Source of the DNA: an uncultured Bacilli bacterium
GTDB taxonomy: Bacteria; Bacillota_I; Bacilli_A; RF39; UBA660
DNA length: 64,000 nt
NCBI GenBank assembly: GCA_934162425.1
Contig: CAKPIS010000007.1
Span: 1,128 to 65,127, forward strand
Direction of reading: 5' to 3'
Shown here: piece after piece, positions 35,912-56,029 of the stretch
Layout of the letters: each line of letters starts with the position of its first letter
Numbering within the stretch: the first letter of the stretch is position 1
Made by a program: the position numbers and the translations under genes
Notes under the pieces: model-generated
The model's database searches: none
What the model was told of the DNA's origin: nothing
What the model saw: only the letters and a program-made list of their open reading frames with translations

Positions 35912-35997
35912 AAGGACCTCCTACTATCATAATAAGTATAACACAATTAAATATAATAACAAACAAAAAACATCAAAATTTTGATGTTTTGTCTATT

Positions 35998-37185: not shown

Positions 37186-37269
37186 AATAAAATCCCCCTT
37201 TACTTGGTGATTTATTTTAGCATAATTTAAAAAAAATAGCAATAGTACTTGCTATTAATACGTATAGGT

Positions 37270-38076: not shown

Positions 38077-38080
38077 ATAA

Positions 38081-38719: not shown

Positions 38720-38738
38720 TTTATCACATCTTTCTTTT

Positions 38739-40466
38739 TTACTGTTTATAATAACTCGTATTTAAATACTTTTGACTTACATATTTACCATTTTCAAATT
38801 CTTTTAAGTAACTAACATATCCCCCATTTGAAAAGTACGAATATGGTTCATATGTCTTATTACCTAATGTTTTATCACTAGACCATATATCAACTGTTAG
38901 CTTTTCTCCTGTAACATATGAAGCAATATATACAGGATAGTCATATTGATTCTTAAATTTATAATCTGTAGTAGTCGATGATACTGTTGCATCTAATCCT
39001 TTTGGAACATAAGCTGGTGCATAAGAATGGTTTATTCTATAAACAATCTCTAAATTTGCTCTTAACTGAGCATTATAAAGTGTTGTAGCCAATTGACAAA
39101 CTCCCCCTCCATTAGCAGTTGTTAAAACTTTATTAACATATGCAGGAGCTGGTAAATAACCATTTTTAGCACTATATGGACCAACTACTTTTAAGTATGA
39201 AAACTCATCGTCTTTCTTTAGCACAGAACCATTTAATTTAGATGCTGCTAAAACTATGTTATGCCCTCTATTACCAACATTTTCAAAAGTAGTAGTATAA
39301 CTTGCAATTTTAGTATTTATAGATGCTAATTCTTTGTTTTTATCTTCCATTTTAACAACAGTACCATAAGCTTTTACTTTAGTTTGATTAGTTAAATTAT
39401 TTAAACTTTTTTCTAGTTCTTTAGCTGTTTTATCTACATCAAGACTAAACCCATTTACGGAAGGAGCATATGAAACATTATGCTTATCATCAACAACAAG
39501 TCCATCTTCTCTTTCTAGTACATCTAAACGTGTCTTTAAAGATATAATGAATTTATTAATACTTTCCTTATCATAAGTTCCTTTTAAGTAAAATACTTTT
39601 CTCTTCTTTTTCATATTTATCATTTTTAATTTTTCTATTAAAGATAAATTTTTATTATAATTTATTATCTCATTTTTAATATCATCTTTATTAGTTATAA
39701 TACCAAGTTCTTTATACGTATAGTCATAATCTCCATTAACGTTTGATATTGTAATTTTACCATCAGTAATTTTTTCATTTTCACTATTTATTATATTGTC
39801 TAACTGACTTATCTTTTTACCAGATAAATTAATATTATTAAAATAAATGCCTGGGTAAAATAAACCATTATACTTTTTTACTAGAGTAAATTCATAAACA
39901 GTTGCACTTAGTAAAATGATAATTAAAATACCAAGGCATATAAAAACATTTCTTTTTACTTTATTATTACTTGATATAGAATTATACTTTTTTATTTCAT
40001 CATCCAATAAAAGCACTTCCTCATCAGATAATTCTCCTTGTTTTATAGCTTCATCTTTGTACTTAGAGAAATATCTATTAAAAGTTTTATTACTAAATGA
40101 TACGTTTGTTTTATTTTGATATTCATAATAAGCTAAATTCTTTTTTTCTTCTTCAGATAGTAGTTTAAAGAATTTAATCATAATAAGTGATTTATTATAA
40201 AATGCAAGAATGCTAATAATTTTAGAATACACAAAAGATATGGCTCTTTTATCATCCTTAATATTACACTGGGATTTTATTCTTTCTATAATTAATTCAT
40301 CTTTTAATACATTAAGAATAGTTTTAATCGCTAATAAATTTTTATTTTCATCTTTTAAAAGTATATCAAGAGCTTCATTTAACTCATGGTTAAAAAGTAA
40401 ATTTTTAACATAATTTACTCTTTGATTTTCGTCCAAATTATTTATTTTACTACTACCATTTGCCAT
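38739..40466 (-). CDS. VanW family protein
   Basis: 575 aa; central TM helix; C-terminal ...GGGVCQLATTLYNA... VanW signature. Confidence 0.8.
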   Translation of the reverse strand: MANGSSKINNLDENQRVNYVKNLLFNHELNEALDILLKDENKNLLAIKTILNVLKDELIIERIKSQCNIKDDKRAISFVYSKIISILAFYNKSLIMIKFFKLLSEEEKKNLAYYEYQNKTNVSFSNKTFNRYFSKYKDEAIKQGELSDEEVLLLDDEIKKYNSISSNNKVKRNVFICLGILIIILLSATVYEFTLVKKYNGLFYPGIYFNNINLSGKKISQLDNIINSENEKITDGKITISNVNGDYDYTYKELGIITNKDDIKNEIINYNKNLSLIEKLKMINMKKKRKVFYLKGTYDKESINKFIISLKTRLDVLEREDGLVVDDKHNVSYAPSVNGFSLDVDKTAKELEKSLNNLTNQTKVKAYGTVVKMEDKNKELASINTKIASYTTTFENVGNRGHNIVLAASKLNGSVLKKDDEFSYLKVVGPYSAKNGYLPAPAYVNKVLTTANGGGVCQLATTLYNAQLRANLEIVYRINHSYAPAYVPKGLDATVSSTTTDYKFKNQYDYPVYIASYVTGEKLTVDIWSSDKTLGNKTYEPYSYFSNGGYVSYLKEFENGKYVSQKYLNTSYYKQ

Positions 40467-40577
40467 ACTATCAACACCCTATCATATAAATTATTATAAA
40501 TTAAAACCTTTTAAAAGTAAATAAGAACCCTTAATAATTTATAGAATATACTACTATTGTAAGTGAGGAGGATAAAT

Positions 40578-41573
40578 GTGAAAAAGAAAATTATTATAAT
40601 AATTTGCAGTCTTTTAGTATTGTTAGTAGGAACTTTACTAATTATAAAGATGCAAAAAAATGAAAAGAAAGATAATAATGAACTAAAAGAAGTTAAAGTA
40701 GCAGAAGTTGCACACACAATATTTTATGCACCCATGTATGCTGCTATAAGTAAAGACTATTTTAAAGATGAAAATATTAAAATAGATTTAAGTCTAACAG
40801 CAGGTGCTGATAAAGTTACAGCAGCAGTATTATCAGGTGATGTTGATATTGGATTTTGTGGCAGTGAAGCCACTATATATGTATATAATAGTGATGAAGA
40901 AGATTATCTTGTAAACTTTGCAAGATTAACTAAAAAAGATGGTTCATTTTTAGTATCAAGAAAAAAATATGATAACTTTAAACTAGAAGACTTAAAAGGG
41001 AAAAAAGTAATTGGTGGAAGAAAAGGTGGAATGCCTGAAATGACATTTGAATGGGGATTAAAACAAAATGGAATTGATCCTAAAAAAGATTTAAGCATTG
41101 ATACTAGTATAGCCTTTTCAGCTATGGAAGGGGCGTTTATAGGAGGTAATGGTGACTTTGTAACACTATTTGAACCTAATGCACTAAGTGTTGAAAAACA
41201 AGGTTTAGGATACGTTGTTGCATATGTTGGTGAATTTGGTGGTGAAGTTCCATATACTGCTTATAATGCAAGAAAAAGTTATATAGAAAATAATAAAGAT
41301 TTAATTAATGGATTTACAAAAGCTATTAATAAAGGGTTAAAGTATGTAAATGAAACAGATTCTAGTATAGTTGCAAAAGATATATATGAATTCTTCCCTG
41401 AATTATCATTAAATGATTTAACCGCAATCATTGAAAGATATAAAACAAATGAAGCTTGGCCTACTTCATCATATATAACAAAAAAAGACTTTGAACATCT
41501 ACAAGATATAATTATTAGTGCTGGAGAATTAGATAAAAAAGCACCATATGACAAATTAGTTTTTGAAGGATAA
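40578..41573 (+). CDS. ABC transporter substrate-binding protein, NMT1/THI5-like (NitT/TauT family)
   Basis: Signal anchor; ...FYAPMYAAISKDYFKDENI... pattern; GTG 40578 preceded by GAGGAGG. Confidence 0.8.
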   Translation: MKKKIIIIICSLLVLLVGTLLIIKMQKNEKKDNNELKEVKVAEVAHTIFYAPMYAAISKDYFKDENIKIDLSLTAGADKVTAAVLSGDVDIGFCGSEATIYVYNSDEEDYLVNFARLTKKDGSFLVSRKKYDNFKLEDLKGKKVIGGRKGGMPEMTFEWGLKQNGIDPKKDLSIDTSIAFSAMEGAFIGGNGDFVTLFEPNALSVEKQGLGYVVAYVGEFGGEVPYTAYNARKSYIENNKDLINGFTKAINKGLKYVNETDSSIVAKDIYEFFPELSLNDLTAIIERYKTNEAWPTSSYITKKDFEHLQDIIISAGELDKKAPYDKLVFEG

Positions 41574-41576
41574 GTT

Positions 41577-41999
41577 ATGAATGAACTCTTAAAAATAGAA
41601 GAGTTAGAAAAAAATTACTTATCTAAGAAAAATGCCATATGTGCTCTTAAGAATATTAATTTAACAGTTAATGAAAATGAGTTTGTAGTATTAGTTGGAC
41701 CATCTGGATGTGGCAAATCAACTATTTTATCAATAATTGGAAATTTAGAGAAAAAAAGTTCTGGTAATATTAAATTTAAAAATAATAATGTAAAAATAGG
41801 TTATATGTTTCAAGAGGACACACTATTTCCTTGGTTAAATGTTTTAGATAACTGTCTATTGGGACTTAAGATAAGAAAAGAGATAAATGAAAGTAGTATA
41901 TCCTATGTTAAAGGATTATTAGAAAAATATGGTCTTTCTGCATTTGAAAAAAGTTTTCCAAGAGAACTTTCTGGTGGTATGAGGCAAAGAGTTGCTTGA
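41577..41999 (+). pseudogene. ABC transporter ATP-binding protein, 5' fragment (interrupted by element 1)
   Basis: Walker A GPSGCGKST, Q-loop MFQED; ends inside the ABC signature LSGGMRQRVA followed by TGA. Confidence 0.85.
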
Positions 42000-42016
42000 A
42001 TGTTATAAAGACACTT
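41996..42016. repeat. left terminal inverted arm of element 1
   Basis: TTGAATGTTATAAAGACACTT; matches the reverse complement of 49831-49851 at 19/21. Confidence 0.85.
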
Positions 42017-42041
42017 ATGGCATTAAAAAATTGACTCAAAT

Positions 42042-43217
42042 TTATGAATCAATTTCTTTCTTTTTTGTTTTACTTTTCTCTAACATTTTAGCGTCATCAA
42101 CTTGTTTTAATCCCAAATTAATAAAGTATATTATTACAAGCCAAGCTAATATTGTCATAGTTATTTGAACTAGGTAGTATGGAGAATTAATTGGCATATC
42201 CCAAATACCATGTAACACAGCTGGAATTAAACATATAAGTAAAAATCTCTTATCATTTAAATGTTTTCTATCTAATTTTTCAAATCCCTTAACATACATT
42301 AATGCTGCTCCTTCAATAGCTGCCCAAGCAACATGTCCTCCTGGAGCTAAAAATCCACGTAATTTAATTATACTAAGCATAGCAGCATTTCCACTATTTA
42401 AACCAAATCTTAAAATATATCCAGCTGTTTCAAATGCTGCAAACCCAGCTCCAACTGCTGCTCCTATAAGTAATCCATCTAGAATATAATTACTTTTTTT
42501 ACTTTTAAATAGGAATAATGCAACTACTATAGCCTTAGCAACTTCTTCTACAAAACCAACTGTTAATGCACCTGTATATGTTGATATATCCATATTAAAT
42601 CCTAGTGTTGAAAGTAATATCGTAAAAATTAAACTTAAAGCTCCTCCAAGTACGAAATACTTAACAACTTTATAAAATGGAATATTTCTAAACAAATTAA
42701 TTTCATAAAAGAACATTAATACCGTAACTGGAATAGCAAATGCACCAAGCATTATCATAGCAGGTAAAAAATTTACTTGTCCATATGTAATATAACCCAT
42801 TCTTGTTGGTATATATGCAATTATAAAAAATATCAGTATCTTAAAATATACCCATGCACTTGCATTTTTAGGATCAATGTCGCTAACTTTAGGTGTAGTT
42901 CTTTCATCACCACATATAAATACTTCATCTAATTCTTTATCATCATGTTTTTTAAAAGTATTTTTAAACAAATCTTTAAACGTAACATAGTTTTCTGATT
43001 TAGCACCTGTTATCTTATCTAGATTTTCTGTTATTATATTTGTTTGAACCTTCTTAACTAAAGGAAAACCACATTCAGGGCAATTTTGTTCATCACCATT
43101 TATTTTTTTACCACACTCTGGACAAACCTCATTTGATTGCTTAATACCACAATGTGGACATACCTTTGCACTAGATGATATTTCTTTTTTACATTCACTA
43201 CATTTAATTAACGCCAT
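42042..43217 (-). CDS. double zinc-ribbon / PrsW-family intramembrane protease fusion
   Basis: N-terminal CSEC...CPHCG and CPEC..CPECG ribbons; polytopic domain with EEVAK, FAAFE, GHVAWAA, HGIWD (PrsW-type motifs). Confidence 0.75.
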   Translation of the reverse strand: MALIKCSECKKEISSSAKVCPHCGIKQSNEVCPECGKKINGDEQNCPECGFPLVKKVQTNIITENLDKITGAKSENYVTFKDLFKNTFKKHDDKELDEVFICGDERTTPKVSDIDPKNASAWVYFKILIFFIIAYIPTRMGYITYGQVNFLPAMIMLGAFAIPVTVLMFFYEINLFRNIPFYKVVKYFVLGGALSLIFTILLSTLGFNMDISTYTGALTVGFVEEVAKAIVVALFLFKSKKSNYILDGLLIGAAVGAGFAAFETAGYILRFGLNSGNAAMLSIIKLRGFLAPGGHVAWAAIEGAALMYVKGFEKLDRKHLNDKRFLLICLIPAVLHGIWDMPINSPYYLVQITMTILAWLVIIYFINLGLKQVDDAKMLEKSKTKKKEIDS

Positions 43218-43222
43218 GTTCT

Positions 43223-43969
43223 TTACCTCCCTTGCGATAATGTACTAATTATATGTTCTACTACACTATTAATTTCAGAAGAATTAGTATTTTCTTCCTT
43301 AGAAGCTATCATATAAACATTGTTATTCATAATAGTAGCATATCTATTATCTACTACTAAATGCCCACTAGATGTATAGTTATATGCTAATCCATAAACT
43401 GTTTTACCACCTATTTGACCAGATACTAAATCTATTGTTATTGTAAGATCACTATACTCTTTTCTCATGTAATCAGTAAATGCATTTAAAAACTGTACTT
43501 CATTTGTGTAACCTGTATATCTACCAACAATTATATATGGTATTAAAGCTCCCTCATTATCAATATTTTTAGCTACGTAAATAAAACCATCCTTATCAGT
43601 TGCAACTTTGTATGAACTAGGATATTCAAAAGATATACCTAATTTCGAATCAGTATAAGTCATATATCCACTTGTTTTAGCAGGTTCTGTTGTACCTTGT
43701 GTATCTGGATTATTAGTTTTATTATTGTTTGTAGTACCCTTATTTTGTGTATATATTAGAAATAAAATAATTACTACTGCAAATATAAATAAATATCTAT
43801 AACTATCTTTTTTAAATTTACCAGTAAATCTACTTCCATTATTACTTGTGTTATTGTTATTATTACCTAAGTTATTTGCATTCTTATTTAACTCATAACC
43901 ACACTTTGGACAAACCTCTGCCTTATCACTAATCTTATTATTACATTCTGGACACTTAATTAAAGCCAT
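43223..43969 (-). CDS. zinc-ribbon, single-pass membrane protein with extracytoplasmic domain
   Basis: MALIKCPECNNKISDKAEVCPKCG is paralogous to the N-terminus of the downstream gene; TM LFIFAVVIILFLIY. Confidence 0.55.
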   Translation of the reverse strand: MALIKCPECNNKISDKAEVCPKCGYELNKNANNLGNNNNNTSNNGSRFTGKFKKDSYRYLFIFAVVIILFLIYTQNKGTTNNNKTNNPDTQGTTEPAKTSGYMTYTDSKLGISFEYPSSYKVATDKDGFIYVAKNIDNEGALIPYIIVGRYTGYTNEVQFLNAFTDYMRKEYSDLTITIDLVSGQIGGKTVYGLAYNYTSSGHLVVDNRYATIMNNNVYMIASKEENTNSSEINSVVEHIISTLSQGR

Positions 43970-43983
43970 ATTTACATCCTCCT

Positions 43984-45087
43984 TTATTTATCAATATAAC
44001 CACTTGTTTTTTGTGTGTACATCTCATCTGTTACAGACTTATATCTTTGACCATCATAATCATCATTAAAACCATTGTAAGCTTTATAAATTTCATTAGT
44101 TTCAGTATCATATACCCTTTCATAGCCAAGTGTTGCATCACTTTGTTTTTGACTCATAATATCATAAGTCTTATTTCTATTTTCCCATGCACTCATATAT
44201 GAATCAAAAGCTCTTTGTATTGAAGCACTAAGTTCTAAAGCTTTTTTAGTTTGTGCATTTCCATCATCAATTGTTTGTTTAACATAACTATCTGTAAAAG
44301 AAATAGAATTAATAGAATTTAATAATATGTCTTTATAATTTACAAATTCATTTTCATCTGCAGTTATCGCCATTATATCGTATACCATATAATATAATGT
44401 ATCTATTCCGTTAATATAATTATCACCAAAGTTAACAATAGAAGCTAAAAATAATCCTTCACCTTTTTTATTATTAGAACCAGTAAATGTACCTCTTAAT
44501 ACTTTACTATCTAATGCTACACTTTTCATTGAAGCATTACCTTCTTGTTCTTCTATTTTTGTAAAATTAGAATATGTAGGAAAATCAAAGCTTGATAAAG
44601 TAGACTCTGCATTTTTTATATAATTTGCTATATCACCAAACTTTTCATAGAACCCTTGAACAGTTGGATTATCCAAAACAACAGCATCAGCAAATAATTT
44701 GTACTGTCCTTTAGACAAGTTAGAATAATCCTTCCAAAAGTTTTTGGATGCTTCACTTTTAAGTAGTGGCTGAATTTTAAGCATTAAAAATATAGAATTA
44801 TTAGTATTATTAGGATCTGTTACTTTTATTGCATAATACATTCCAACTCCAACACCACTAACTGTCCAACCTTTTGGCTTCTTCATTGTAAATACTGAAC
44901 TTTCATAATCCTCTAATGTTAAAGTAGATACCTCACTTTTTCTAATTTTTAACTTAGCTTCGTTTTTAGTTACAATTTTTCTATCTTTATTCCCACTTTT
45001 TTTATTAGGATTAATCAAAAATATTAGAGCTACTACTATTACTATAGCGGCCAATAATAAGTTTTTATTTTTTTTAATAAATTCCAT
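43984..45087 (-). CDS. hypothetical membrane-anchored extracytoplasmic protein
   Basis: 367 aa, N-terminal TM helix; first gene of a tightly spaced three-gene minus-strand unit. Confidence 0.5.
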   Translation of the reverse strand: MEFIKKNKNLLLAAIVIVVALIFLINPNKKSGNKDRKIVTKNEAKLKIRKSEVSTLTLEDYESSVFTMKKPKGWTVSGVGVGMYYAIKVTDPNNTNNSIFLMLKIQPLLKSEASKNFWKDYSNLSKGQYKLFADAVVLDNPTVQGFYEKFGDIANYIKNAESTLSSFDFPTYSNFTKIEEQEGNASMKSVALDSKVLRGTFTGSNNKKGEGLFLASIVNFGDNYINGIDTLYYMVYDIMAITADENEFVNYKDILLNSINSISFTDSYVKQTIDDGNAQTKKALELSASIQRAFDSYMSAWENRNKTYDIMSQKQSDATLGYERVYDTETNEIYKAYNGFNDDYDGQRYKSVTDEMYTQKTSGYIDK

Positions 45088-45153
45088 TAATTAAACACCT
45101 TACCTTTTATACCTATTTAATTATAGTTTAAATTATTTATATTAACAATTAAC

Positions 45154-45184
45154 TTGCCATTTAATTCATTGTTTTTAATGGCAA
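45154..45184. promoter_or_regulatory. inverted repeat in the divergent promoter region of element 1 (operator or attenuator candidate)
   Basis: TTGCCATT-N15-AATGGCAA followed by T7 on the plus strand, ~55 nt upstream of the HTH gene. Confidence 0.3.
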
Positions 45185-45239
45185 CTTTTTTTATCTATTT
45201 CCAATTTATATAGTATAATAAACATATGAGGTGATAAAT

Positions 45240-46970
45240 TTGACATTTAAAGACACACTTAATTCATATTTAAAAGAAATAAATTCTTCATCAAAAAAAT
45301 TATCTGATGTATCTGGCATTTCTGAATCAGTTATAAGTAGATATAGAAGTGGAGATAGAACACCTAATAAAAATGAAGTTTTATTAAAACTATCTGATGC
45401 TATATATACTATTTCATTAGAAAATAATAAATTAAATTATAAAAAAGAAGATATCTTAAAAAAATTAAAGGACTCTACTAAAGAAGATGAATTTAACTAT
45501 GATACCTTTAGTTTAAATTTTAATAAATTAATATCTGCTCTTAATATTAACACAAATGATATGTCAAAATACATCGTATTTGATGCATCACATATTTCTA
45601 GAATAAGATATGCAAAATCAAAACCATCAGATCCTAAAGAGTTTAGTACTAAAATTTGTAATTATGTTACATCAAAATATAATGATAGTGATAGTTTAAA
45701 TATATTATCTACACTAATGGGTTGTAAAAAAGAAAAAATAGAAAAAGATTTATTTAATACACTTTATAATTGGTTAATAAATAATGATTGTAATAATTAT
45801 AAAAACAACATAGAAAACTTTCTAAATCATTTAAATGAGTTTAATTTAAATGATTATATAAAAGCTATTAAGTTTGATGAATTAAAGGTACCTAATATAC
45901 CTTTTTACAGAGGAAAAACTAAAAATTACTACGGATTAGAAGAAATGAAAAAAGCAGAATTAGACTTTTTTAAAATAGCCGTTTTATCCAAGAATAAAGA
46001 AGATATATTTATGCATAGCGATATGCCTATGGAAGATATGGCAAAAGATGTTTTGTTTGGAAAAAAGTGGATGTTTGGGATAGCCCTAAGTCTTAAAAAA
46101 GGACTTAATTTAAATATAATACATAATCTAGATAGACCATTTGATGAAATGATGTTAGGGCTTGAAAGTTGGATTCCTATATATATGACTGGACAAGTAT
46201 CACCTTACTATTTAAAAGAAGTTAAAAATAGTGTATACAATCATTTAAATTATGTATGTGGTAGTGCTGCTTTATGTGGTGAATGTATTAAAGGATATCA
46301 TGATAAAGGTAAATATTATTTAACAAATAATAAAAAAGAAATAGAATATTACAAAGAAAAAGCTAATTTATTACTTAAGAAAGCTAATAGTTTAATGGAC
46401 ATATATAAGGAAGAAAATAAAAATGATTTTAAGGTGTTTATGTTAAACGATTCCAAATTAAAAGTTAACAGAAAAAGAATAATATCTACTCTTCCTATTG
46501 AAACTATAGATAATAATTTATTAGAAGAAATATTAAAATATAATAATGTTAGTAAAAAAGATGAAAAACTAATTTTAAAATATAAGATGGAAGAAGAGGA
46601 AAATATTAACAAAATATTAAAAGATAGTATTATAGAAAATGTTATATATGAAGTTAAAAAAGATGAATTTGTAAACGAAGAGTTTTATTTATCATTAGAA
46701 AATATGTTTTATGATAAAAAGATAAAATATACTTATGATATGTATAAAAAACATTTAGCATCAAGTAAAAGCTATTCTAAAAAGCATCAAAATTATAAAA
46801 TAATAAAAGCAAAAGATAAAACATTTAAAAACATATCTATAACCATTTTAAAAGATAATTACGTGATATTATCTAAAAGTGCTAATCCAATAATACATTT
46901 TGTAATTAGACACCCTAAATTAGTTAATGCAATAGAAAATTTTAGTCCTTTGGTAAAAGAAGAGGCATAG
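45240..46970 (+). CDS. large helix-turn-helix protein (two XRE-like HTH segments, ~400-aa unknown C-terminal region)
   Basis: ...LSDVSGISESVISRYRSGDRTPN... and ...MSKYIVFDASHISRIRYAKSKPS...; TTG 45240 preceded by GAGGTGA. Confidence 0.6.
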   Translation: MTFKDTLNSYLKEINSSSKKLSDVSGISESVISRYRSGDRTPNKNEVLLKLSDAIYTISLENNKLNYKKEDILKKLKDSTKEDEFNYDTFSLNFNKLISALNINTNDMSKYIVFDASHISRIRYAKSKPSDPKEFSTKICNYVTSKYNDSDSLNILSTLMGCKKEKIEKDLFNTLYNWLINNDCNNYKNNIENFLNHLNEFNLNDYIKAIKFDELKVPNIPFYRGKTKNYYGLEEMKKAELDFFKIAVLSKNKEDIFMHSDMPMEDMAKDVLFGKKWMFGIALSLKKGLNLNIIHNLDRPFDEMMLGLESWIPIYMTGQVSPYYLKEVKNSVYNHLNYVCGSAALCGECIKGYHDKGKYYLTNNKKEIEYYKEKANLLLKKANSLMDIYKEENKNDFKVFMLNDSKLKVNRKRIISTLPIETIDNNLLEEILKYNNVSKKDEKLILKYKMEEEENINKILKDSIIENVIYEVKKDEFVNEEFYLSLENMFYDKKIKYTYDMYKKHLASSKSYSKKHQNYKIIKAKDKTFKNISITILKDNYVILSKSANPIIHFVIRHPKLVNAIENFSPLVKEEA

Positions 46971-47033
46971 AGTTAATCTATGTCTTTAATATTTTATCTT
47001 TAATTTAATATATTTAAATTAGAGGTGTTTATT

Positions 47034-47177
47034 TTGAAATACAATGTAGATGAAATTTATGATGAAAATTTAACTTATGATATTTTAAAAATAATAATTA
47101 ATCAAAAAATATATAATATCATAGAAAAGTTAGAATTTAATTTATGCCCAGATATGGATGGTAATTATATTGAATAA
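47034..47177 (+). CDS. possible small acidic protein overlapping the recombinase start (RDF candidate)
   Basis: Own reading: AGAGGTG-N6-TTG, 47 aa (KYNVDEIYDENLTYDILKII...); stop overlaps the recombinase start by 20 nt. Confidence 0.25.
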   Translation: MKYNVDEIYDENLTYDILKIIINQKIYNIIEKLEFNLCPDMDGNYIE

Positions 47178-48789
47178 TTTAAACAGAACGTTAAGAGTTG
47201 GCATTTATTTAAGATTATCTAATGAAGATAAAGATAAGGCTTATAAAAATGATGTAAGTGAATCAATTAAGAACCAAAGAAACATGCTTATTGAGTATAT
47301 TAATAAACACCCCGAATTTATACTTATAGATGAATATTCTGATGAAGATTTATCAGGTGCTGGGACATATAGACCAGAGTTCGAAAGATTAATTAAGGAC
47401 TGTAAAAACAGAAAATTAGATATAGTGTTATGTAAAAGTCAGTCTAGATTTTCAAGGGATATGGAAATCGTTGAAAGATATATAAATAACAAATTTAAAG
47501 AATGGAATATTAGATTTATTAGTTTAGTAGATAATGCTGATACTTTAATTTTAGGAAATAAAAAGTCAAGGCAAATAAATGGATTAGTTAATGAGTGGTA
47601 CTTAGAAGATGTATCTAATAATATTAGGAGTGCTTTTTTTTCTAAAATGAAACAAGGAGAATTTATTTCACCCTTTGCTTCACTTGGATATGAAGTTTCA
47701 AAAGAAAATAACAATAAATTAGTAATTGATAAAGAGGCTGCTTTAATTGTAAAGATAATATTCAATTTATATTTAATGGGTTTTGGATACATGAGGATAG
47801 CTAAATACTTAAATGATAAAGCAATCCCCTCTCCTTCACTATACAAGTATAAAAAAGGAATCAAATTAAATGTAATTAGTAATAAACCAAGGGATAAAAT
47901 TAAATGGAATTCATCTGCTATTAAAAGTATTTTATCAAATGAACTTTATTTAGGTCATTTAATCCAAGGTAAAAGAACTACCGTTAGCTATAAAAATCAT
48001 AAAATAATAAATAGACCTAAAAATGAATGGATAAAAATTAAAAATACACACGAAGCTATAATAGATGAAGAAACTTTTATGAAAGTACAAAAAGCTATGA
48101 AAGAAAGAACAAAGGTAGCTAAAAATACAGGTAAAATTCATAATTTTTCTGGAAAGGTCTTTTGCTTAGAATGCGATAGTTACATGAGAAAAAAAAATTC
48201 TAGCAAGCATGAGTATTTAGTTTGTTCTAATAATCAAGATAGTTGTTGCAAAAACAAGTCATCTGTGCGTTATGAAGTATTAGAAAATATTATTTTAAGT
48301 GAAATAAATAAAAAAATCAAAAGTTATTATGATGGGCAACTATTAAAAAAAGAAATATTAAAAAAGAAAAAAGCTATATCCCAAAAAAAACTTTCATTAT
48401 TAGAAAATCAAAAAAAAGAATTACTCTTAAATTTATCTAAAACAAGCAACTATTTACAAAATCTTTATGAAGATAAAGTTAATAATATTATTACTAAAGA
48501 GCAATTCGAAAGTTTAATTACAATTTATAATAATGATAGAGATAATTATAAAGAAAAGATTAAATTTATTAATAATGAAATTATACATTATAAAGAAAAA
48601 GAAAAGAATAATGATAACGATGAAAAGATTTTATGTAAATATCAAGAATTTAGCAAATTAAATAGAATTATTATCCAAGAATTTATAGATAAAATATATA
48701 TAGGAAAAATAAATAAAGAAGTTAAAGTAAGAGATATTAAAATAAAGTGGAATTTTAATATGTTAGAGGGAAAGATAAAAGTTTTGTAG
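47158..48789 (+). CDS. large serine recombinase (element 1)
   Basis: 543 aa; RVGIYLRLSNED catalytic-Ser segment, SRFSRD, recombinase and zinc-ribbon region (CLECDS...CSNN), coiled-coil tail. Confidence 0.85.
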   Translation: MVIILNNLNRTLRVGIYLRLSNEDKDKAYKNDVSESIKNQRNMLIEYINKHPEFILIDEYSDEDLSGAGTYRPEFERLIKDCKNRKLDIVLCKSQSRFSRDMEIVERYINNKFKEWNIRFISLVDNADTLILGNKKSRQINGLVNEWYLEDVSNNIRSAFFSKMKQGEFISPFASLGYEVSKENNNKLVIDKEAALIVKIIFNLYLMGFGYMRIAKYLNDKAIPSPSLYKYKKGIKLNVISNKPRDKIKWNSSAIKSILSNELYLGHLIQGKRTTVSYKNHKIINRPKNEWIKIKNTHEAIIDEETFMKVQKAMKERTKVAKNTGKIHNFSGKVFCLECDSYMRKKNSSKHEYLVCSNNQDSCCKNKSSVRYEVLENIILSEINKKIKSYYDGQLLKKEILKKKKAISQKKLSLLENQKKELLLNLSKTSNYLQNLYEDKVNNIITKEQFESLITIYNNDRDNYKEKIKFINNEIIHYKEKEKNNDNDEKILCKYQEFSKLNRIIIQEFIDKIYIGKINKEVKVRDIKIKWNFNMLEGKIKVL

Positions 48790-48914
48790 AACAATATGAG
48801 TGGAAGGTTATATTTTTATATAATCTTTTTTAAATGCTAATTAAAAGGAAGTGAAAACTAATAAAAAACGAGATTATATTATTTGAAAATCAAAACGTAA
48901 AATTAGAAGTTAAT

Positions 48915-49799
48915 ATGAAAGATGAAAGCGTTTGGCTAAATCGTGAGCAATTAGCTATGCTTTTTGATAGAGATATTAAAACAATAGGCAAACATATTAA
49001 TAATGCTTTAAATGAAGAACTAGATAATTCAGTTGTCGCAAAATTTGCGACAACTGCAAAAGATGGTAAAACTTATCAAGTAGAATATTACAATTTAGAT
49101 ATGATAATTAGTGTTGGTTATCGTGTTAAGAGTCAAAATGGTGTTATTTTTAGAAAATGGGCAAATAAAGTATTAAAAGATTATATAATTAAAGGTTATG
49201 CAGCCAATCAAAAAAGACTAGAATATCTTGAAAAAGCAATTAAATTAATAGATATTGCTGGAAGAATAGATACTGAATTAAAAGGTACAGAAGCTGGGGA
49301 AATAATTAAAGTAATAAATAACTATTCAAATGCTTTAAATTTACTTAATGACTATGACCATAAGCGAATAACTAAACCAAATGGTACAAAAAATAACAAA
49401 AAGATTACTTATGAAGAGTGTATTAGTATAGTTAATAAACTTAAATTTAATAGTGATAGTGACTTATTTGCACTTGAACGAGATGATGGTTTAAAAGAGG
49501 TTATAGGCACTATATATCAATCTTTTGATGGTAAAGACTTATATCCTAGCATTCAAGAAAAAGCAGCCAATTTCTTATATTTAATAACTAAAAACCATAC
49601 TTTCATTGATGGTAATAAAAGAATTGCTGCTACACTATTTATCTATTTTCTTGAATTCTATAATATTCTATATAAAGAAAATGTACAAGTTATTGATAAT
49701 AATTCTCTTGTTGCTATTACACTACTTATAGCAGAGTCTAATCCGAAAGAAAAAGATATACTAATTGATTTAGTAATGAACTTCTTGAAAAATAAATAA
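48915..49799 (+). CDS. RhuM-family N-terminal domain fused to a Fic/Doc domain
   Basis: VWLNREQLAMLF...KHINN, ...YYNLDMIISVGYRVKSQNGVIFRKWA (RhuM pattern); C-terminal HTFIDGNKRIAA = Doc-type HxFxDGNKR motif. Frame is open 60 nt further upstream without a canonical start. Confidence 0.8.
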   Translation: MKDESVWLNREQLAMLFDRDIKTIGKHINNALNEELDNSVVAKFATTAKDGKTYQVEYYNLDMIISVGYRVKSQNGVIFRKWANKVLKDYIIKGYAANQKRLEYLEKAIKLIDIAGRIDTELKGTEAGEIIKVINNYSNALNLLNDYDHKRITKPNGTKNNKKITYEECISIVNKLKFNSDSDLFALERDDGLKEVIGTIYQSFDGKDLYPSIQEKAANFLYLITKNHTFIDGNKRIAATLFIYFLEFYNILYKENVQVIDNNSLVAITLLIAESNPKEKDILIDLVMNFLKNK

Positions 49800-49830
49800 T
49801 AATTAAAAAAATATCCAGAACACTTATAAA

Positions 49831-49851
49831 AAGTGTCTTTAATACATTCAA
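49831..49851. repeat. right terminal inverted arm of element 1
   Basis: AAGTGTCTTTAATACATTCAA. Confidence 0.85.
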
Positions 49852-50193
49852 AGAGTTGCCTTAATTAGGACACTAGCTATTAAACCAGATATACTTCTTT
49901 TAGATGAACCGTTTTCAGCATTAGATTATCAAACTAGGATAAATGTATCTGATGATGTATATAAAATTATAAAAGAAGAGAAAAAAACAGCAATAATGGT
50001 TACACATGATATATCTGAAGCAATCGCTATGGCTGATAAAGTTATAGTATTAAGTAAAAGACCAGCTGTAGTTAAAAATAGTTATACAATTGAAATGGAA
50101 TGCAAAAACTTACCAAGCATAAATAGAAAAAATAAAAAATTTGACTACTATTATGACTTAATTTGGAAGGACTTTGATTATCATGAAAGCTAA
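49843..50193 (+). pseudogene. ABC transporter ATP-binding protein, 3' fragment
   Basis: Frame open from 49843: ..QRVALIRTLAIKPDILLLDEPFSALD (Walker B), MVTHD (H-loop); no start codon of its own until 49996. Confidence 0.85.
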
Positions 50194-50815
50194 AAATGAA
50201 TACAAGACTTACCTAAAAAAATTAAGAATATCAAAAATTAGAGTCTTACTTTGTCAAATATCAATATTTTTACTATTTATAATAACATGGCAAATACTTG
50301 CAGATAAAAATATAATAAGCACATTTCTATTTTCAAGTCCTACTAAAATAGTTCAAACCATAATCAATCTAGCTACTAAAAATGAATTATTTATTCATAT
50401 TCTAGTAACATTAAAAGAAATATTAATTAGCTTTACAATAGGTACAATAATAGGCATATTATTTGCAGCTATACTATGGCTTAGTCCATTTTTATCAAAA
50501 GTATTAGATCCATATTTAACTATACTTAATAGTTTGCCTAAAGTATCACTTGGTCCTATAATAATTATTTGGGCTGGAGCTAATCAAAATTCCGTTATAA
50601 TAATGGCACTTTTAATATCAGTTATATCAACTATTATATCAGTCTATTCTGGTTTTAAACAAACGAATAAAAATAGCATTAAGCTTCTTAAAAGCTTTAA
50701 TGCCAATAATTTTCAAATATTTACAAGTGTTATTTTTAAAGCTAATATAAATACAATTATAAGTTCACTTAAAATTAACCTATCAATGACCTTTGTTGGG
50801 CTAATGGTAATATGA
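50183..50815 (+). pseudogene. ABC transporter permease, 5' fragment (interrupted by element 2)
   Basis: Overlaps the ATPase 3' end as in an operon; 5 TM segments; ends ...LSMTFVGLMVI then TGA at the junction. Confidence 0.8.
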
Positions 50816-50836
50816 AGAGAAAAAATATTTTTAAAA

Positions 50837-52183
50837 TTAAGATATCTTATAAAATATCTCTATATCATTATCAGTTACCACAACTTTATCAATAATGTGC
50901 ATAATTATTATCCTTTTTTCTTCAAATGTCATTTTATTCCAAGTGTTTTGAAGATTTCTTAACATTTTTAATGAAACTCTATTTTGTTCTTCATTATTTT
51001 TTGAAATATCAATTATCTCTAATATTGACTTTCTTTCTTGCTCTAATTCTTCAATTTTCTTTTTAATGTCATCAACTGCAATACCATCTGAAATAAAATT
51101 AATCAAGTTGCCTATTTGTAAGTTTATCTTTGCAAATCTTTTTTCATATTCACTGATAACATCCACTTGTGTAATTTCGTATTTTTCTCTAAACAAATCT
51201 TCATCAAGTGCCATTGAAAATAAGTTTTCTAATACCACATCTTCAATTTCAAAGGAATCCCATCTTTTATTTTTGCAATTTGGATCTTTAATAAATTTGG
51301 GTTTACTTTTTTGTTGGGAGTAGCAGTAGCAAATCAATCTTTTTCCCCATTTTTGATATCTATACTTTGCACCACAGTGTCCACAAAATATTTTTCCTGA
51401 TAACAAATAATGACTTTCTGTTCTTGCTTTGCTTCGTAGTTTATTAGTTTCCATTATTTTCTTATGTAATTCTTCTGATATTACCGCTTCATGCTTTCCT
51501 TCGAATTCTTGATTCTTATATGGTACAATACCTAGCGTTCTTCTTGATAGTATTCTTTTTTCAACCATACTTTCATCCATACCAACTATATTACTAATTT
51601 TAACAAAACTATAACCATTTAAATAAAGATTTATCATTTTATGTAATAATTCTACTTGTTCTGGTACAGGAATTAAAGTTCCTGTATTTTTATCATAGGT
51701 ATAAGGGAATGGATTTTTCCCTCCACCTTTCCAATATCCATTTTCAGCTCTTTTTTTTATACCAATTTTCGTTCTTTCAAGTATCGTTTCTCTTTCAAGT
51801 TGTGCGAATATTGATAAAACACCGACCATAGCTTTACCAAATGGAGTTGTAGTATCAAAATTTTCTCTCACAGAAACAAAGCCCACATTATATTTATTAA
51901 ACACCTCTTCAATTAAATATAAAGTATCTTTTTGACTTCTTGATATTCTATCTAGTTTAAATACAATTACACAATCAATTTTATGAACTTTAACATCTTT
52001 TATGAGTCTTTGAATGGCTGGTCGTTCCAAGTCTTTACCACTATAACCACCATCAACATAATATTCATACTCGGTAAATTCTTTAGCTTTAGCATAGTTT
52101 AATAAAAATTCTTTTTGTGCATCAATTGAATAACCTTCTAATTGAATATCAGTTGAAACTCTAGCATATAATCCTGCTTTTAT
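50837..52183 (-). CDS. large serine recombinase (element 2), SpoIVCA/SprA-like; non-canonical or lost start codon
   Basis: The track ORF starts at TTG 52030, but the frame is open to 52198 and encodes (I)KAGLYARVSTDIQLEGYSIDAQ... (catalytic Ser). AAGGAGG at 52198-52192 is followed 8 nt later by ATA (52183). No ATG/GTG/TTG lies in between. Confidence 0.8.
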   Translation of the reverse strand: MKAGLYARVSTDIQLEGYSIDAQKEFLLNYAKAKEFTEYEYYVDGGYSGKDLERPAIQRLIKDVKVHKIDCVIVFKLDRISRSQKDTLYLIEEVFNKYNVGFVSVRENFDTTTPFGKAMVGVLSIFAQLERETILERTKIGIKKRAENGYWKGGGKNPFPYTYDKNTGTLIPVPEQVELLHKMINLYLNGYSFVKISNIVGMDESMVEKRILSRRTLGIVPYKNQEFEGKHEAVISEELHKKIMETNKLRSKARTESHYLLSGKIFCGHCGAKYRYQKWGKRLICYCYSQQKSKPKFIKDPNCKNKRWDSFEIEDVVLENLFSMALDEDLFREKYEITQVDVISEYEKRFAKINLQIGNLINFISDGIAVDDIKKKIEELEQERKSILEIIDISKNNEEQNRVSLKMLRNLQNTWNKMTFEEKRIIIMHIIDKVVVTDNDIEIFYKIS

Positions 52184-52677
52184 AACAATTACCTCCTTCT
52201 AACTATAAAAGCAGTCATATACTATATTAGATTGCTCTTACAGTATAACATACATTTCACAATTTATGTCTTAAATCAAAAAAATAAGGAAAAGTTCTGG
52301 TAAACTCTCCCTTAAGTATAACTACTTTTACTGTGAATATTTTTTAATTAGTTCATATATCAATGGTATCTTTATTACTATGTCTTTTGGGTTTATGATT
52401 TTACCATTTGAATCATAATTTGTTACTTTATTAGCCACTAATATAGTCGCCCCTAATTAAGTTTATTTTTATTTCATATAAATTATTCAGTCATAATTTC
52501 TCTTATATCAAATCACTCGTTATATACCAATATTTTCAATAGCATAATCAACGATATATTAGTATAATTTCCTATAAACTATTCTAAACCATCCATATCA
52601 TAATTATAGTTATTAAATATCAATTGAGAAAATTCTACATTTTTTCTTAACAATTAAAATTACCAAACAACATTTCC

Positions 52678-52714
52678 AAAAAAGTCTTGCTTTATTTAGC
52701 AAGACTTTAAAAAA
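52678..52714 (-). terminator. rho-independent terminator
   Basis: AAAGTCTTGCT-N6-AGCAAGACTTT with a U-run on the minus strand, just downstream of 52719. Confidence 0.55.
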
Positions 52715-52718
52715 CTAA

Positions 52719-53090
52719 TTAATCTTTTAAAATAACTATTTTTTTAACATTAGATAATTTAGCTGGTTCACTTGGTAATATCACATCGGATGAAGTAATA
52801 GTTACTTTTTGCTTTGCTTTTAATTTATCTGCAGCAGAATCTTCATTGTTATAAACTATTTTTGTATCTTTATTTATTTCAAATTCATACTCTATAGTAT
52901 ATTCTTTTTTCTTTTTGTCATATTCTTCCACTAAAACAGTATATACATTATTATTTACTGTTACTTCTTTAATTCTTGCTTCAAAAACCAATTCTTTTTC
53001 TTTTGAAACATAATTTGTATATATGAAGTATCCTAATCCTACAAGGACAACTACTGCTATAATTATTTTTACTAGTAAATCTTTTTTCAT
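52719..53090 (-). CDS. hypothetical membrane-anchored small protein
   Basis: 123 aa, N-terminal TM/signal anchor. Confidence 0.5.
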   Translation of the reverse strand: MKKDLLVKIIIAVVVLVGLGYFIYTNYVSKEKELVFEARIKEVTVNNNVYTVLVEEYDKKKKEYTIEYEFEINKDTKIVYNNEDSAADKLKAKQKVTITSSDVILPSEPAKLSNVKKIVILKD

Positions 53091-53130
53091 TTCTTCCCTC
53101 CTTTCCTAAATTAATTTATTTAAACTTATA

Positions 53131-54465
53131 TTATAAGAATCTATCCCAATAATATCTTCCTGTATTAGATAATGTTTTAAAATGCTCTTTAATTTGTGAA
53201 CTAATTAATTTTGCTTTTTTATTTATTGGAGTACCATCATTGTAACAAGATCTCTTTGTTGTTCTAGTCATCATATCAGAAAATAAAACAGCTCTATCTT
53301 CTAAATAACTTTGTCTTGAATAATACGATAAAAAATAAGCATTATTTGGATTGGAAAAATTATAATCATAAGTACTATCATTAGAACCATAACTAAATCC
53401 TTCAGGATTATATGATTTCATTATTTCTTCTAAGTTTAATGTTGAATTTTTTTGTCGCATATAAATATCAATATAGTGCATTAACTCATGGTGCAAAGTA
53501 CTTTCAAATAAACTAGTACCATTGGTTCCAATAGTTACTGTTATATTACTTTGATTTCTACCATCTGTCATACCTGAATAATTTCCATCTATTTTGTTAA
53601 CCATGTATATTCTAAGAGAAATATTATTATCCTTCATTTCTTTAAAAAAACCGTTTGGATATTTTTTTAATGTTTTCTCTACTTCTTTTAAATATTTATC
53701 TATCTCATTATCATCATTTAGTTTTTCAGTTTTTATAGAGCCACCGATTAAATAATCACCATTCTCATCTTTATATATGATTTTAACTGAATACTTATTT
53801 TCTAATGTTTTTCTATATTCATTATTTTTTTCTGCTTGAGTTTTTTCTACAACTGGTGGCTTTTCATCGGGTAAAATAGTATTTGTGTTATTGTTATTGT
53901 TTGTATTTTGATTAGGTTTATTAGTATTAGTACTACTATTGTTATTATCTGTATTAGTGTTTGTTTTAGATTTTTCAGTTTTAGTATTAGTTTTTTTATT
54001 TTCCATTTTTTCCCAAACAGCATAAAGGGTAGTATCTTCTGCAAGTAATACTTTGTTATAAATTGGAGTTTCATTTTTATCAACCCAGCCTTTAAAAACA
54101 TAGCCATCTCGTACAGGTTCTTTTGGAAGTGTAAGTTCAATATCTTTATTTATAGTAATACTATCTATTATGCTTCCACCTTTAGTATCAAATGTAATTG
54201 TTATTGCTTCTTTTATATCTTTTTCAATGTCATTCATAGGGCAAGCATATTTAGTCGTTTTTAAAACTGTTTTAGTTTTACCATCAGAACATTTATAAGT
54301 ATTTGTAAAAATCCCTTTATCTATGTAAACAGTAGAACCACCATCATAATAATCTCTAATTTTAATTATTTGACTATTATTAAATGAAAGAGCGATTATA
54401 AAATCTAAAAATATTAAACTTATTATAGAACATAGTGTGATTATTATTATTTTTTTCTTCTTCAT
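53131..54465 (-). CDS. secreted/anchored protein with a Listeria-Bacteroides (Flg_new) repeat and a putative HExxH metallopeptidase domain
   Basis: 444 aa; signal anchor; GYVFKGWVDKNETPIYNKVLLAEDTTLYAVWEK repeat; Asn/Thr-rich linker; STLHHELMHYID motif. Confidence 0.55.
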   Translation of the reverse strand: MKKKKIIIITLCSIISLIFLDFIIALSFNNSQIIKIRDYYDGGSTVYIDKGIFTNTYKCSDGKTKTVLKTTKYACPMNDIEKDIKEAITITFDTKGGSIIDSITINKDIELTLPKEPVRDGYVFKGWVDKNETPIYNKVLLAEDTTLYAVWEKMENKKTNTKTEKSKTNTNTDNNNSSTNTNKPNQNTNNNNNTNTILPDEKPPVVEKTQAEKNNEYRKTLENKYSVKIIYKDENGDYLIGGSIKTEKLNDDNEIDKYLKEVEKTLKKYPNGFFKEMKDNNISLRIYMVNKIDGNYSGMTDGRNQSNITVTIGTNGTSLFESTLHHELMHYIDIYMRQKNSTLNLEEIMKSYNPEGFSYGSNDSTYDYNFSNPNNAYFLSYYSRQSYLEDRAVLFSDMMTRTTKRSCYNDGTPINKKAKLISSQIKEHFKTLSNTGRYYWDRFL

Positions 54466-54636
54466 TATACCTCCTCACAAATAATAAACGAAAAGTGATT
54501 TACTTCTGTATATTAATTATATCATGAATTTCCCGATTTCAAAAAAGTTTTTAATTTGGTTGCTTTTTAGGTATCAATAATTTAAAAGAAAAAGACCAAT
54601 ATAAAATTGATCTTATCTATAAAACATATTATTAAA

Positions 54637-55197
54637 TTAACATTTTCCACCGTTATCTTTAAAATATGATTCAATATATTTTACTAATATTTTAGCTTTG
54701 TTAAACTGTTTATCTTTAACAATTTTTATAATATAATCACTACCACTTGCATCAATAATATTATCATCTTTATCATATTCTATTAGATAAGTATACTTTT
54801 CACCATTAAGTTGACAATTAAGAAGAACAGTTTGATTTTCTTTTATAGTCATAGAATTTTTTTTAGCACCAAACATAATATTTATGAAAATAGTAATAGC
54901 AAAACCAACAATAAAAATTATTCCCAAGACTTTTAGTATCTTAATTATTATCTCTGTATTTTTTTCGTTATTATTTACTTTTTCTACTAATACTTGTTTA
55001 ATGTCATTATTTAATAATTCATCAATACTTACTTTTAATGCTTTAGATAATAATTTTAACTGCTCTGGATTTGGTGAAGTTTCACCAAGCTCCCAATTTG
55101 ATATTGTTTGTCTAGTAACATCAACTTTTTCTGCTAATTGTTCTTGTGAAAGTTTACAATCTTTTCTTAATTTTAAAATGTTATCTCCTAATTTCAT
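54637..55197 (-). CDS. XRE-family HTH protein with TM helix
   Basis: LRKDCKLSQEQLAEKVDVTRQTISNWELGETSP; TM VLGIIFIVGFAITIFINIMF. Confidence 0.7.
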   Translation of the reverse strand: MKLGDNILKLRKDCKLSQEQLAEKVDVTRQTISNWELGETSPNPEQLKLLSKALKVSIDELLNNDIKQVLVEKVNNNEKNTEIIIKILKVLGIIFIVGFAITIFINIMFGAKKNSMTIKENQTVLLNCQLNGEKYTYLIEYDKDDNIIDASGSDYIIKIVKDKQFNKAKILVKYIESYFKDNGGKC

Positions 55198-55304
55198 TCT
55201 ATCTCTCCTTTCACTTACAATTATATATGAGTTGATATTTGCAATCTACCAAATGTCTTTGGAAGTTTGTCAAAGACTTTTAACAATTATAATACAAATA
55301 ACTA

Positions 55305-55685
55305 TTATTCTACATCACAAGACCAAAGTCCATGCTTATTACAATATGCATATAATTTTGATCCTTTTATATATTTGAATTTACATTCTGCACTTTGTTC
55401 TGGTGATAATTTAACTTTGCAAATATCTTTTTCATTAACTAGTGCAATCCATTCAATAAAATGTTCTTTTTCCATAACATGATTAACTTTAACAAGTATT
55501 TTATCATCACTATGTTCAAAAGTTGGAATATGTTTTTCAAACGATGCATCAACACTATTTGAAATTAACTTTATCATAGGTTCACAACAACAAGTTATTT
55601 CACAGTCGCCACAGTTACAATCATTAATTACCTCAACTATCGTTCCACACTTTAAACACTTTTTTATTATTAACTCACTCATCAT
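55305..55685 (-). CDS. desulfoferrodoxin (class I superoxide reductase)-like protein
   Basis: 126 aa; N-terminal CLKCG...CCCEPM desulforedoxin-like site; EKHIP, HVMEKEHFIEWI, YCNKHGLW match the Dfx centre II pattern. Confidence 0.75.
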   Translation of the reverse strand: MMSELIIKKCLKCGTIVEVINDCNCGDCEITCCCEPMIKLISNSVDASFEKHIPTFEHSDDKILVKVNHVMEKEHFIEWIALVNEKDICKVKLSPEQSAECKFKYIKGSKLYAYCNKHGLWSCDVE

Positions 55686-55835
55686 TTGTTTCCTCCTTTA
55701 TAACAATAGACTATCTTTAATAAATTTCTTCCATAACAGTATGAACAACATATTTCTGCCATAATTTTTTCTCTCAATTGCAATAAATATAAGTATATAA
55801 ACTGCTTCTAATTTTTTCCCCATACCTGCTATAAC

Positions 55836-56021
55836 GGTGTAATAATGGGAGAATTATTAGTATCTAAACAAGGCTTAGGTTACTTAATAAACTATGGTTC
55901 CCAAGTATTTAATATAAACTTAGTAATGTCAGGAATAATACTACTTGCACTTCTAACTAGTATTTTATACTTCGTAATATTATTTATAGAAAAAGCATTA
56001 AAAAATAACAAATCAATTTAA
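55836..56021 (+). pseudogene. ABC transporter permease, 3' fragment
   Basis: Own reading: GVIMGELLVSKQGLGYLINYGSQVFNINLVMSGIILLALLTSILYFVILFIEKALKNNKSI*, typical C-terminus of NitT/TauT permeases. Confidence 0.75.
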
Positions 56022-56029
56022 TATAATTA

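Follow-up and report, generated by a model that had tools for sequence, protein, structure and literature searches.

A large serine recombinase element in the ATPase gene of a NitT/TauT-type importer operon of an uncultured gut Bacilli bacterium

The insertion of elements that carry a large serine recombinase (LSR) into dispensable genes is well known in Bacillota, as set out in the part of Guedon et al. 2017 (PMC5704250) drawn on here, and the same part describes TnpX/TndX (Tn4451 recombinase) as performing both integration and excision without a recombination directionality factor (RDF). On a larger scale, Durrant et al. 2022 (PMC10083194) predicted thousands of LSRs together with their attachment (att) sites by comparing occupied with empty sites, and reported the DUF4368 domain in 63% of a multi-targeting clade versus 0.73% of the site-specific LSRs. 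Here we describe an element of this general kind in a 64-kb stretch of DNA (positions 1,128 to 65,127 of contig CAKPIS010000007.1, assembly GCA_934162425.1; referred to as the window) from an uncultured Bacilli bacterium, in which 7,864 bp (element 1) split the gene for an ATP-binding cassette (ABC) ATPase. Element 1 is very probably an integrated, recently mobile element that was inserted by its own recombinase, LSR1, through conservative site-specific recombination between an attP of ~50 bp and an attB of ~40 bp. The reading is carried by the precise presence or absence of the element within one species, the restoration of the open reading frame (ORF) upon its removal, a target that is shared clade-wide, a GT crossover and the geometry of the half-sites.

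An earlier reading of the window from its letters only (the sequence-only reading) had reported an ORF that contains Walker A and stops inside the ABC signature, a second frame that has no start codon of its own until 49996, and a single uninterrupted ATPase upon removal of the 7,864 bp between them. All three were recovered, the two frames at the very positions given. The features concerned are the following.

41577..41999, + strand: 5' ABC ATPase fragment, residues 1-140, from Walker A to the middle of the signature motif (140-aa allele on ~196 public contigs among the cluster members listed)
41992..49855: integrated element 1, 7,864 bp from crossover to crossover (equivalent to 41996-49859), defined by presence/absence against contigs L088, L089 and L177-L180
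49843..50193, + strand: 3' ATPase fragment, residues 137/141-250, with Walker B and the H-loop

The 5' ORF encodes 140 residues with the Walker A motif GPSGCGKST and ends in LSGGMRQRVA, followed by a TGA that is supplied by element 1, while the 3' frame is preceded by a TAA at 49840-42, has its earliest ATG at 49996 and stops at 50191-50193. After deletion of the 7,864 bp the two form one ORF of 250 residues that covers the ABC_tran profile from end to end (positions 1-136 of 137, E 1e-31, Pfam). The alignment that had been proposed as a check on this joined protein was made with 13 intact homologues from genome contigs (42-65% identity) and runs seamlessly across the junction LSGGMRQRVALIRTLA, with neither a gap nor a duplication. 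The target is the ATPase of a NitT/TauT-type importer, with the attB located in the codons of the ABC signature and close to the D-loop (GG-MRQRVAL-IRT), and the insertion of element 1 inactivates the ATPase gene.

Evidence for a discrete insertion comes from further strains of the species. Six same-species contigs (L088, L089 and L177-L180), with flanks that are 97-99.6% identical, lack precisely the 7,864 bp of element 1, and the empty sites of all six read GGTATGAGGCAAAGAGTTGCCTTAATTAGGACAC, which is verbatim the attB that the sequence-only reading had predicted. When the joined protein served as the query of a protein search, intact 250-aa alleles (98-99% identity) were obtained and led to L088 and L089, which are 97-99% identical to the flanks in the window. 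L177-L180, which are as long as 500 kb, align collinearly with the window for more than 10 kb to either side (97.6-99.6% identity), and the two blocks of this alignment, 31574-41995 and 49849-60180, share just the 11-nt core. The empty site thus consists of the flanks joined via one copy of the core, without duplication or loss of target sequence, as expected for conservative recombination. Among the members listed of the species-level protein cluster (15 of 40), the split 140-aa allele was found on ~196 contigs and the intact allele on ~50. As both alleles are frequent across contigs, the insertion represents a genuine and common strain polymorphism.

Two other explanations were considered and set aside. 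An assembly artefact is ruled out by the same arrangement in an independent assembly (L081) and by the occurrence of the 140-aa allele on ~196 contigs. The origin of the empty sites by homologous deletion between the two 11-mers is an unnecessary assumption, given the empty sites in a sister species and the clade-wide conservation of the arms.

The junctions themselves could be resolved in detail.

41968..42014, + strand: attL, consisting of the chromosomal B arm, GT at 41991-41992 and the element P' arm (TTGAAT 41996-42001, AGACAC 42009-42014)
49833..49878, + strand: attR, consisting of the element P arm (GTGTCT 49833-49838, ATTCAA 49846-49851), GT at 49855-49856 and the chromosomal B' arm (GACAC 49869-49873)

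The 11-mer CAAAGAGTTGC, taken by the sequence-only reading as the core at both junctions, indeed occurs at 41985 and 49849 and nowhere else in the window, and the repeat could not be extended on either side. The crossover proper, however, is not the whole 11-mer: when attL and attR were compared within each of eight complete elements, using codon-anchored extraction, the sole dinucleotide identical in all eight was GT, at core positions 7-8 (CAAAGA-GT-TGC, that is, within AGAG-TTGC). In the window this GT lies at 41991-2 and 49855-6 and forms the exact dyad centre of the attP that is obtained by joining the element ends. The inverted repeat of 21-nt arms (41996-42016 and 49831-49851) is complementary at 19 of 21 positions, as had been claimed. 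Because AT-rich DNA is full of chance repeats (the window has a G+C content of 26% and 958 inverted pairs were listed in 8.8 kb), the arms were subjected to a chance control, in which 200,000 random pairs of 21-mers from the window gave 18/21 at best and never 19/21.

Counting outward from the crossover, we derived consensus half-sites for the family. The attP arms carry TTGAAT at positions 5-10 and AAGACAC at 17-23, the right arm of attB carries TAAT at 7-10 and AG(A/G)ACAC at 12-18, and the left arm of attB carries ATACCAC at 12-18. Compared with attP, the proximal motif of attB is thus kept in position and the distal (ZD) motif lies 5 bp nearer to the centre. Rutherford et al. 2013 (PMC3783163) described the same for the LI/A118 integrase, with the ZD motif at positions 16-24 in attP and displaced inward by 5 bp in attB. 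As expected for an LSR, the system comprises a quasi-palindromic attP, a distinct and shorter attB, and a shared, non-palindromic central dinucleotide, GT.

A palindromic attP-like layout had been proposed for the joined element ends. Four unintegrated relatives were found to carry contiguous, unrecombined attP sites in which the same pair of arms frames GT, at a distance of 100-160 nt from the LSR gene on its downstream side, so the predicted geometry exists in nature.

L145, ~11779: intact attP
L150, ~11746: intact attP
L126, ~11755: intact attP
L128, ~3922, - strand: intact attP

The recombinase that would act on these sites is encoded within element 1, as the sequence-only reading had recognised, and is accompanied by a small ORF.

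47025..47177, + strand: conserved small ORF of 50 aa (range in relatives, 37-50 aa), with a 20-nt overlap with the start of the LSR gene
47158..48789, + strand: large serine recombinase LSR1, 543 aa, catalytic serine S21 in YLRLS

The domain composition of LSR1 was confirmed with Pfam: Resolvase (E 2.1e-17, residues 16-167), Recombinase (PF07508, E 1e-24) and Zn_ribbon_recom (PF13408, E 3.3e-10). DUF4368 (PF14287) scored on the borderline (24.9 bits vs a cutoff of 25) and is listed for most relatives in their precomputed Pfam annotation. Within the YLRLS motif, R19 and S21 are invariant across 18 relatives. The closest named relative is TndX of Tn5397 (31% identity, with 99% of the length aligned), and the nearest solved structures are the catalytic domain of a conjugative-transposon recombinase, SPbeta SprA (at the level of E 1e-14) and the N-terminal domain of TnpX (2mhc); the match to NCBIfam XisF is weak (95 bits vs a cutoff of 375). 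The small ORF is found directly upstream of the LSR gene throughout the clade, with the consensus M.YNIIDIVD..LTDTKLKEIINKKLYKIIELMEFNV. Its substitutions are distributed over the codon positions as 5633/2938/7339, which indicates that it evolves as a coding sequence, and its 50-aa product had no family match in Pfam, PADLOC, PHROGs or NCBIfam.

Relatives of LSR1 were gathered by exact-protein look-up and with an alignment of 18 sequences that was run against metagenome contigs. The clade proved to be very large and to belong to low-GC gut Bacillota, with at least 120 relatives at 67-99% identity. In ~47 of the 49 integrated relatives with a visible junction, the ATPase gene is split at the same codons (MRQRVAL, residues 137-140), even though the ATPases of these hosts share only 49-80% identity with that of the window. 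The two others, L111 (2520 and 12625) and L119 (~2890), with LSRs that are ~69% identical, reside in non-ATPase sequences with junctions that still carry GT, and are occasional secondary targets. A Tn4451/Tn5397-type serine transposon of low specificity that landed in the ATPase gene by chance would be compatible with these two insertions, with TndX as the closest, full-length named relative and with the borderline DUF4368, and yet we give this explanation hardly any credence, since ~47 of 49 relatives would have to have met the identical position in such diverged hosts and since the crossover dinucleotide is GT, not the GA reported for TnpX/TndX.

Site-specific integration by LSR1 would then proceed as is established for the biochemistry of other LSRs. 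The attP, with two arms of ~23 bp around GT, would have been recombined with the ~40-bp attB in the ATPase codons; dimers of LSR1 would bind attP and attB and cut with a 2-nt stagger at GT, after which one half of the synapse would rotate by 180 degrees and the strands would be religated to give attL and attR. Excision would be the reverse, attL recombining with attR to release a circle that carries attP, and may be helped by the product of the small ORF or may be autonomous, as was reported for TnpX/TndX. Because element 1 has neither a relaxase nor phage structural genes, its horizontal spread would depend on helper elements.

Element 1 encodes seven proteins. Besides LSR1 and the small ORF product, its features are the following.

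42042..43217, - strand: zinc-ribbon and PrsW-family intramembrane protease, 391 aa (Pfam PrsW-protease E 4.7e-29; homologue in element L140)
43223..43969, - strand: zinc-ribbon/PsbP_2-like protein, 248 aa (also paired with the PrsW gene in L140)
43984..45087, - strand: 367-aa protein without a family match (homologue in element L083)
45231..46970, + strand: 579-aa protein with a weak N-terminal helix-turn-helix (Pfam HTH_26/HTH_3 below cutoff)
46961..46987, + strand: terminator-like hairpin between the cargo and the recombination module, the sole terminator-like site in 45000-50300
48915..49799, + strand: semi-conserved RhuM/Fic(Doc)-domain protein, 294 aa (Pfam RhuM and Fic)

The complete elements of the clade measure 3,968-10,442 bp and have the same ends. 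An LSR gene is present in all eight, and the LSR gene and the small ORF are the sole universal components, the other cargo being variable. Only one cargo gene is semi-conserved (5/8 complete elements): it adjoins the LSR gene and encodes the RhuM/Fic(Doc) protein, a match to the PADLOC candidate defence family PDC-S23 (E 3e-115). Among the eight elements compared, the 579-aa protein was found in the window element only; it had no match in PADLOC, PHROGs or NCBIfam, and the 367-aa protein had none in Pfam, PHROGs, PADLOC or NCBIfam. The G+C content of element 1 is 24.7% vs 26.4% for the window, and in its composition profile the element could not be distinguished from its flanks. A promoter scan was uninformative (44 found vs 45.3 expected), and the window contains no tRNA genes.

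The gene content bears on the possibility that element 1 is the remnant of a decayed prophage or phage satellite, immobile in spite of a surviving integrase, with the empty sites representing strains that were never lysogenised. LSR1 does match a PHROG integrase family (E 5.5e-97), RhuM and Fic/Doc genes are common prophage morons, and the attP junction of element 1 itself was not found. Searches with Pfam and PHROGs, on the other hand, revealed no capsid, tail, terminase or replication genes in element 1, and not a single relative of LSR1 was present in 2.9 million IMG/VR contigs. Complete elements down to 3,968 bp have the same ends, the LSR gene and the small ORF are intact and conserved, and the arms in attL and attR are conserved clade-wide. 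A decayed phage is therefore a very unlikely origin.

Some members of the clade do carry or accompany genes for mobility. A MobV relaxase is complete in L156 and partial in L109 and L083, and L145 and L150 lie in contexts resembling an integrative and conjugative element (ICE), with a coupling protein of a type IV secretion system, an M48 peptidase and a small resolvase. The ICE-like DNA of L145 and L150 ends in a second LSR gene that adjoins chromosomal genes, which suggests composites in which two integration modules serve as alternatives. As a separate observation, in L156 and L106, unlike in all other members, the LSR gene is found at the other end of the element and is inverted relative to the polarity that GT gives to the att sites; the near-palindromic attP apparently lets the module flip in these two.

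Several results weigh against a recently mobile element driven by LSR1. The circular junction AAGTGTCTTTAATACATTCAAAGAGTTGCTTGAATGTTATAAAGACACTT of the window element, which the sequence-only reading had put forward as a sequence to look for, was absent from all collections searched (a pattern scan of IMG/VR and the fetched loci); the IMG/VR pattern scan for attB, attP, attL and attR gave two matches, both by chance and outside ABC genes. Two contigs with a near-identical LSR gene (P0001 and P0002) both end inside the element and show no circular junction, and the strain polymorphism could reflect past gain instead of current activity. No relaxase was found in the window element with Pfam or by tblastn with the relaxases of L156 and L109, and no origin of transfer (oriT) was found in it either, although it may contain a cryptic one. 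The small ORF is a candidate accessory or directionality factor purely by conjecture. The AlphaFold2 model of LSR1 is poor overall (predicted local distance difference test (pLDDT) 60.5, predicted template modelling score (pTM) 0.33), and the helical hairpin predicted at 393-483 (helices 393-441 and 447-483, with a pLDDT of 82-90 for this block) is consistent with the coiled-coil motif that follows the zinc ribbon in LSRs.

A further finding was that the ATPase gene is not the only gene of the operon that is interrupted.

40563..41573, + strand: NMT1/SsuA-like substrate-binding protein gene of the target operon (Pfam NMT1 E 5.7e-24; NCBIfam SsuA_fam below cutoff)
50174..50815, + strand: 5' permease fragment, residues 1-208 of ~263 (matching Pfam BPD_transp_1 only up to position 127 of 184 in the profile)
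50800..55837: element 2, 5,038 bp, an unrelated LSR element that splits the permease gene, with only GG common to its junctions (50798-9, 55836-7)
50837..52183, - strand: LSR2, 448 codons, 26% identical to LSR1
55836..56009, + strand: 3' permease fragment, residues 205-263

A tblastn search with the intact permease of L082 placed residues 1-208 at 50183-50809 and residues 205-263 at 55836-56009. The permease gene is intact in the sister-species contigs L090 and L091, which define the junction of element 2. Element 2 encodes, besides LSR2, a DUF3221 protein, a Flg_new-repeat protein, an HTH_3 repressor-like protein and a desulfoferrodoxin. All six same-species contigs that extend to the permease junction contain it, four of them (L177-L180) without element 1. 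Since element 2 splits the permease gene even where element 1 is absent, excision of element 1 restores the ATPase ORF and not the transporter; the restoration claimed by the sequence-only reading therefore holds for the ORF, whereas the operon is already broken by element 2 in this species. The reading frame of LSR2 is intact, with the catalytic motif YARVS, and has no ATG, GTG or TTG start; an ATA (52183-52181) is found 8 nt after a strong AAGGAGG. This ATA is present in every same-species allele (L081, L177-L180), and relatives at 91-94% identity start with ATG. Either LSR2 is a locked-in, untranslated recombinase or the start is a conserved, non-canonical one.

The broken permease speaks against a further alternative, namely that element 1 acts as a reversible switch or programmed intervening element, comparable to skin/sigK, SPbeta/spsM or the fdxN element of Anabaena, where conditional excision or excision in terminal cells rebuilds the gene. 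Excision would indeed rebuild a perfect ATPase ORF, both alleles coexist in the species, and the hosts L082 and L083 have an intact permease, which means that excision could give back function in them. Of the six same-species contigs that extend to the permease, in contrast, none would regain anything by a rebuilt ATPase, as element 2 splits the permease gene in all of them. The intact alleles are found on contigs of up to 500 kb and thus represent differences between strains, not sub-populations within samples. The variable cargo and the relatives that have relaxases or are part of conjugative elements are typical of selfish mobile DNA, and no context of sporulation or differentiation was seen. 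Taken together, these points make a programmed switch highly improbable.

A third type of LSR element was found in the same operon in other loci. It is compact (~2.8 kb; L117 7978-10807, L149 11145-13863), consists of an LSR gene and two small ORFs, and splits the same ATPase gene in the codons of the H-loop (THD(I/L)AEA). With element 1, element 2 and this third type all in this operon, at least three LSR lineages use it as an integration site. One may go further and propose that the small ORF would encode a novel and minimal partner of a TndX-like LSR, with a role in directionality or regulation, that the operon would be a landing pad shared by at least three unrelated LSR lineages (in signature-motif codons, H-loop codons and the permease), and that reversible excision would toggle the transporter in hosts where the rest of the operon is intact. 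As a combined proposal this seems unlikely to us.

We also noted some features around the operon. The 3' permease fragment is followed immediately (56106-57298, - strand) by genes for an ADP-ribosyltransferase exoenzyme-like protein (257 aa, PF03496) and for a prepilin-type N_methyl protein, according to the annotation of L081. On the other side, the region 37000-39000, which lies upstream of a VanW/PG_binding_4 gene, has a very low G+C content (16.5-18%) and contains two ORFs without a Pfam match (37270-38076 and 38081-38719).

With respect to its practical and conceptual meaning, element 1 provides a fully specified natural LSR system, consisting of a recombinase, an attP of ~50 bp, an attB of ~40 bp and the GT crossover, with dozens of natural variants of each. 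It stems from an uncultured gut lineage and could be tried directly as an integration tool. With its borderline DUF4368 score, the clade is a counter-example to the association that was reported between DUF4368-type LSRs and multi-targeting. Moreover, the locus illustrates that a single transporter operon can collect independent LSR insertions, and that a gene that can be restored by excision does not imply a function that can be restored.

Compared with the site-specific integrative (mobilizable) LSR elements of Bacillota, as they appear in the part of Guedon et al. 2017 used here (PMC5704250), element 1 is alike in having a single LSR, a dispensable gene as target, short repeats at its ends, a small size and variable cargo, and some of its relatives (L156, L109) carry MobV relaxases as well. 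Of the properties by which an integrative mobilizable element is recognised, element 1 has an integration/excision module of its own and att sites; a relaxase and/or oriT of its own was not found. It differs from the Bacillota elements in its lack of a relaxase and in the conserved ORF of 37-50 aa that is coupled to the LSR gene. The codons of the ABC signature motif, too, are not among the targets named in that part of PMC5704250, which mentions rumA.

The resemblance to Tn5397, Tn4451 and Tn4453 concerns the recombinase (TndX is 31% identical to LSR1, the N-terminal domain of TnpX, 2mhc, was matched, and the C-terminus gave a borderline DUF4368 score) and the MobV (TnpZ-like) relaxase, which is present in some relatives and not in the window element. 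The similarity in sequence is only distant, and Tn4451 and Tn5397 have a low target specificity and a GA crossover, in contrast to the one conserved target and the GT found here. With the integrases of A118/LI, Bxb1, phiC31 and SPbeta, LSR1 shares the quasi-palindromic attP of ~50 bp, a shorter attB, a non-palindromic dinucleotide and the 5-bp shift of the ZD motif, and may also have their coiled-coil hairpin after the zinc ribbon, with which the model is consistent. Unlike these phage integrases, LSR1 is not encoded on a phage, has no recognisable RDF and is related to SPbeta SprA only at the level of E 1e-14.

The logic of occupied versus empty sites is the one applied in the catalogue of Durrant et al. 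2022, which likewise contains many diverged LSRs that share one conserved, intragenic attB; the clade of LSR1 departs from it in being of the DUF4368 type (with a borderline score) and yet essentially single-target. Like skin/SpoIVCA, SPbeta/SprA and the fdxN element/XisF, element 1 is an LSR-bounded insert upon removal of which an ORF is rebuilt, with the difference that there is no evidence of programmed excision and that the host operon remains broken after excision. Element 1 is thus a clean example of an ordinary kind of bacterial mobile DNA and leaves the current view of how such elements work unchanged. The departures from known systems are modest: an essentially single-target clade of TndX-like LSRs of the DUF4368 type, the particular ATPase target, a conserved micro-ORF and three LSR lineages on one operon.

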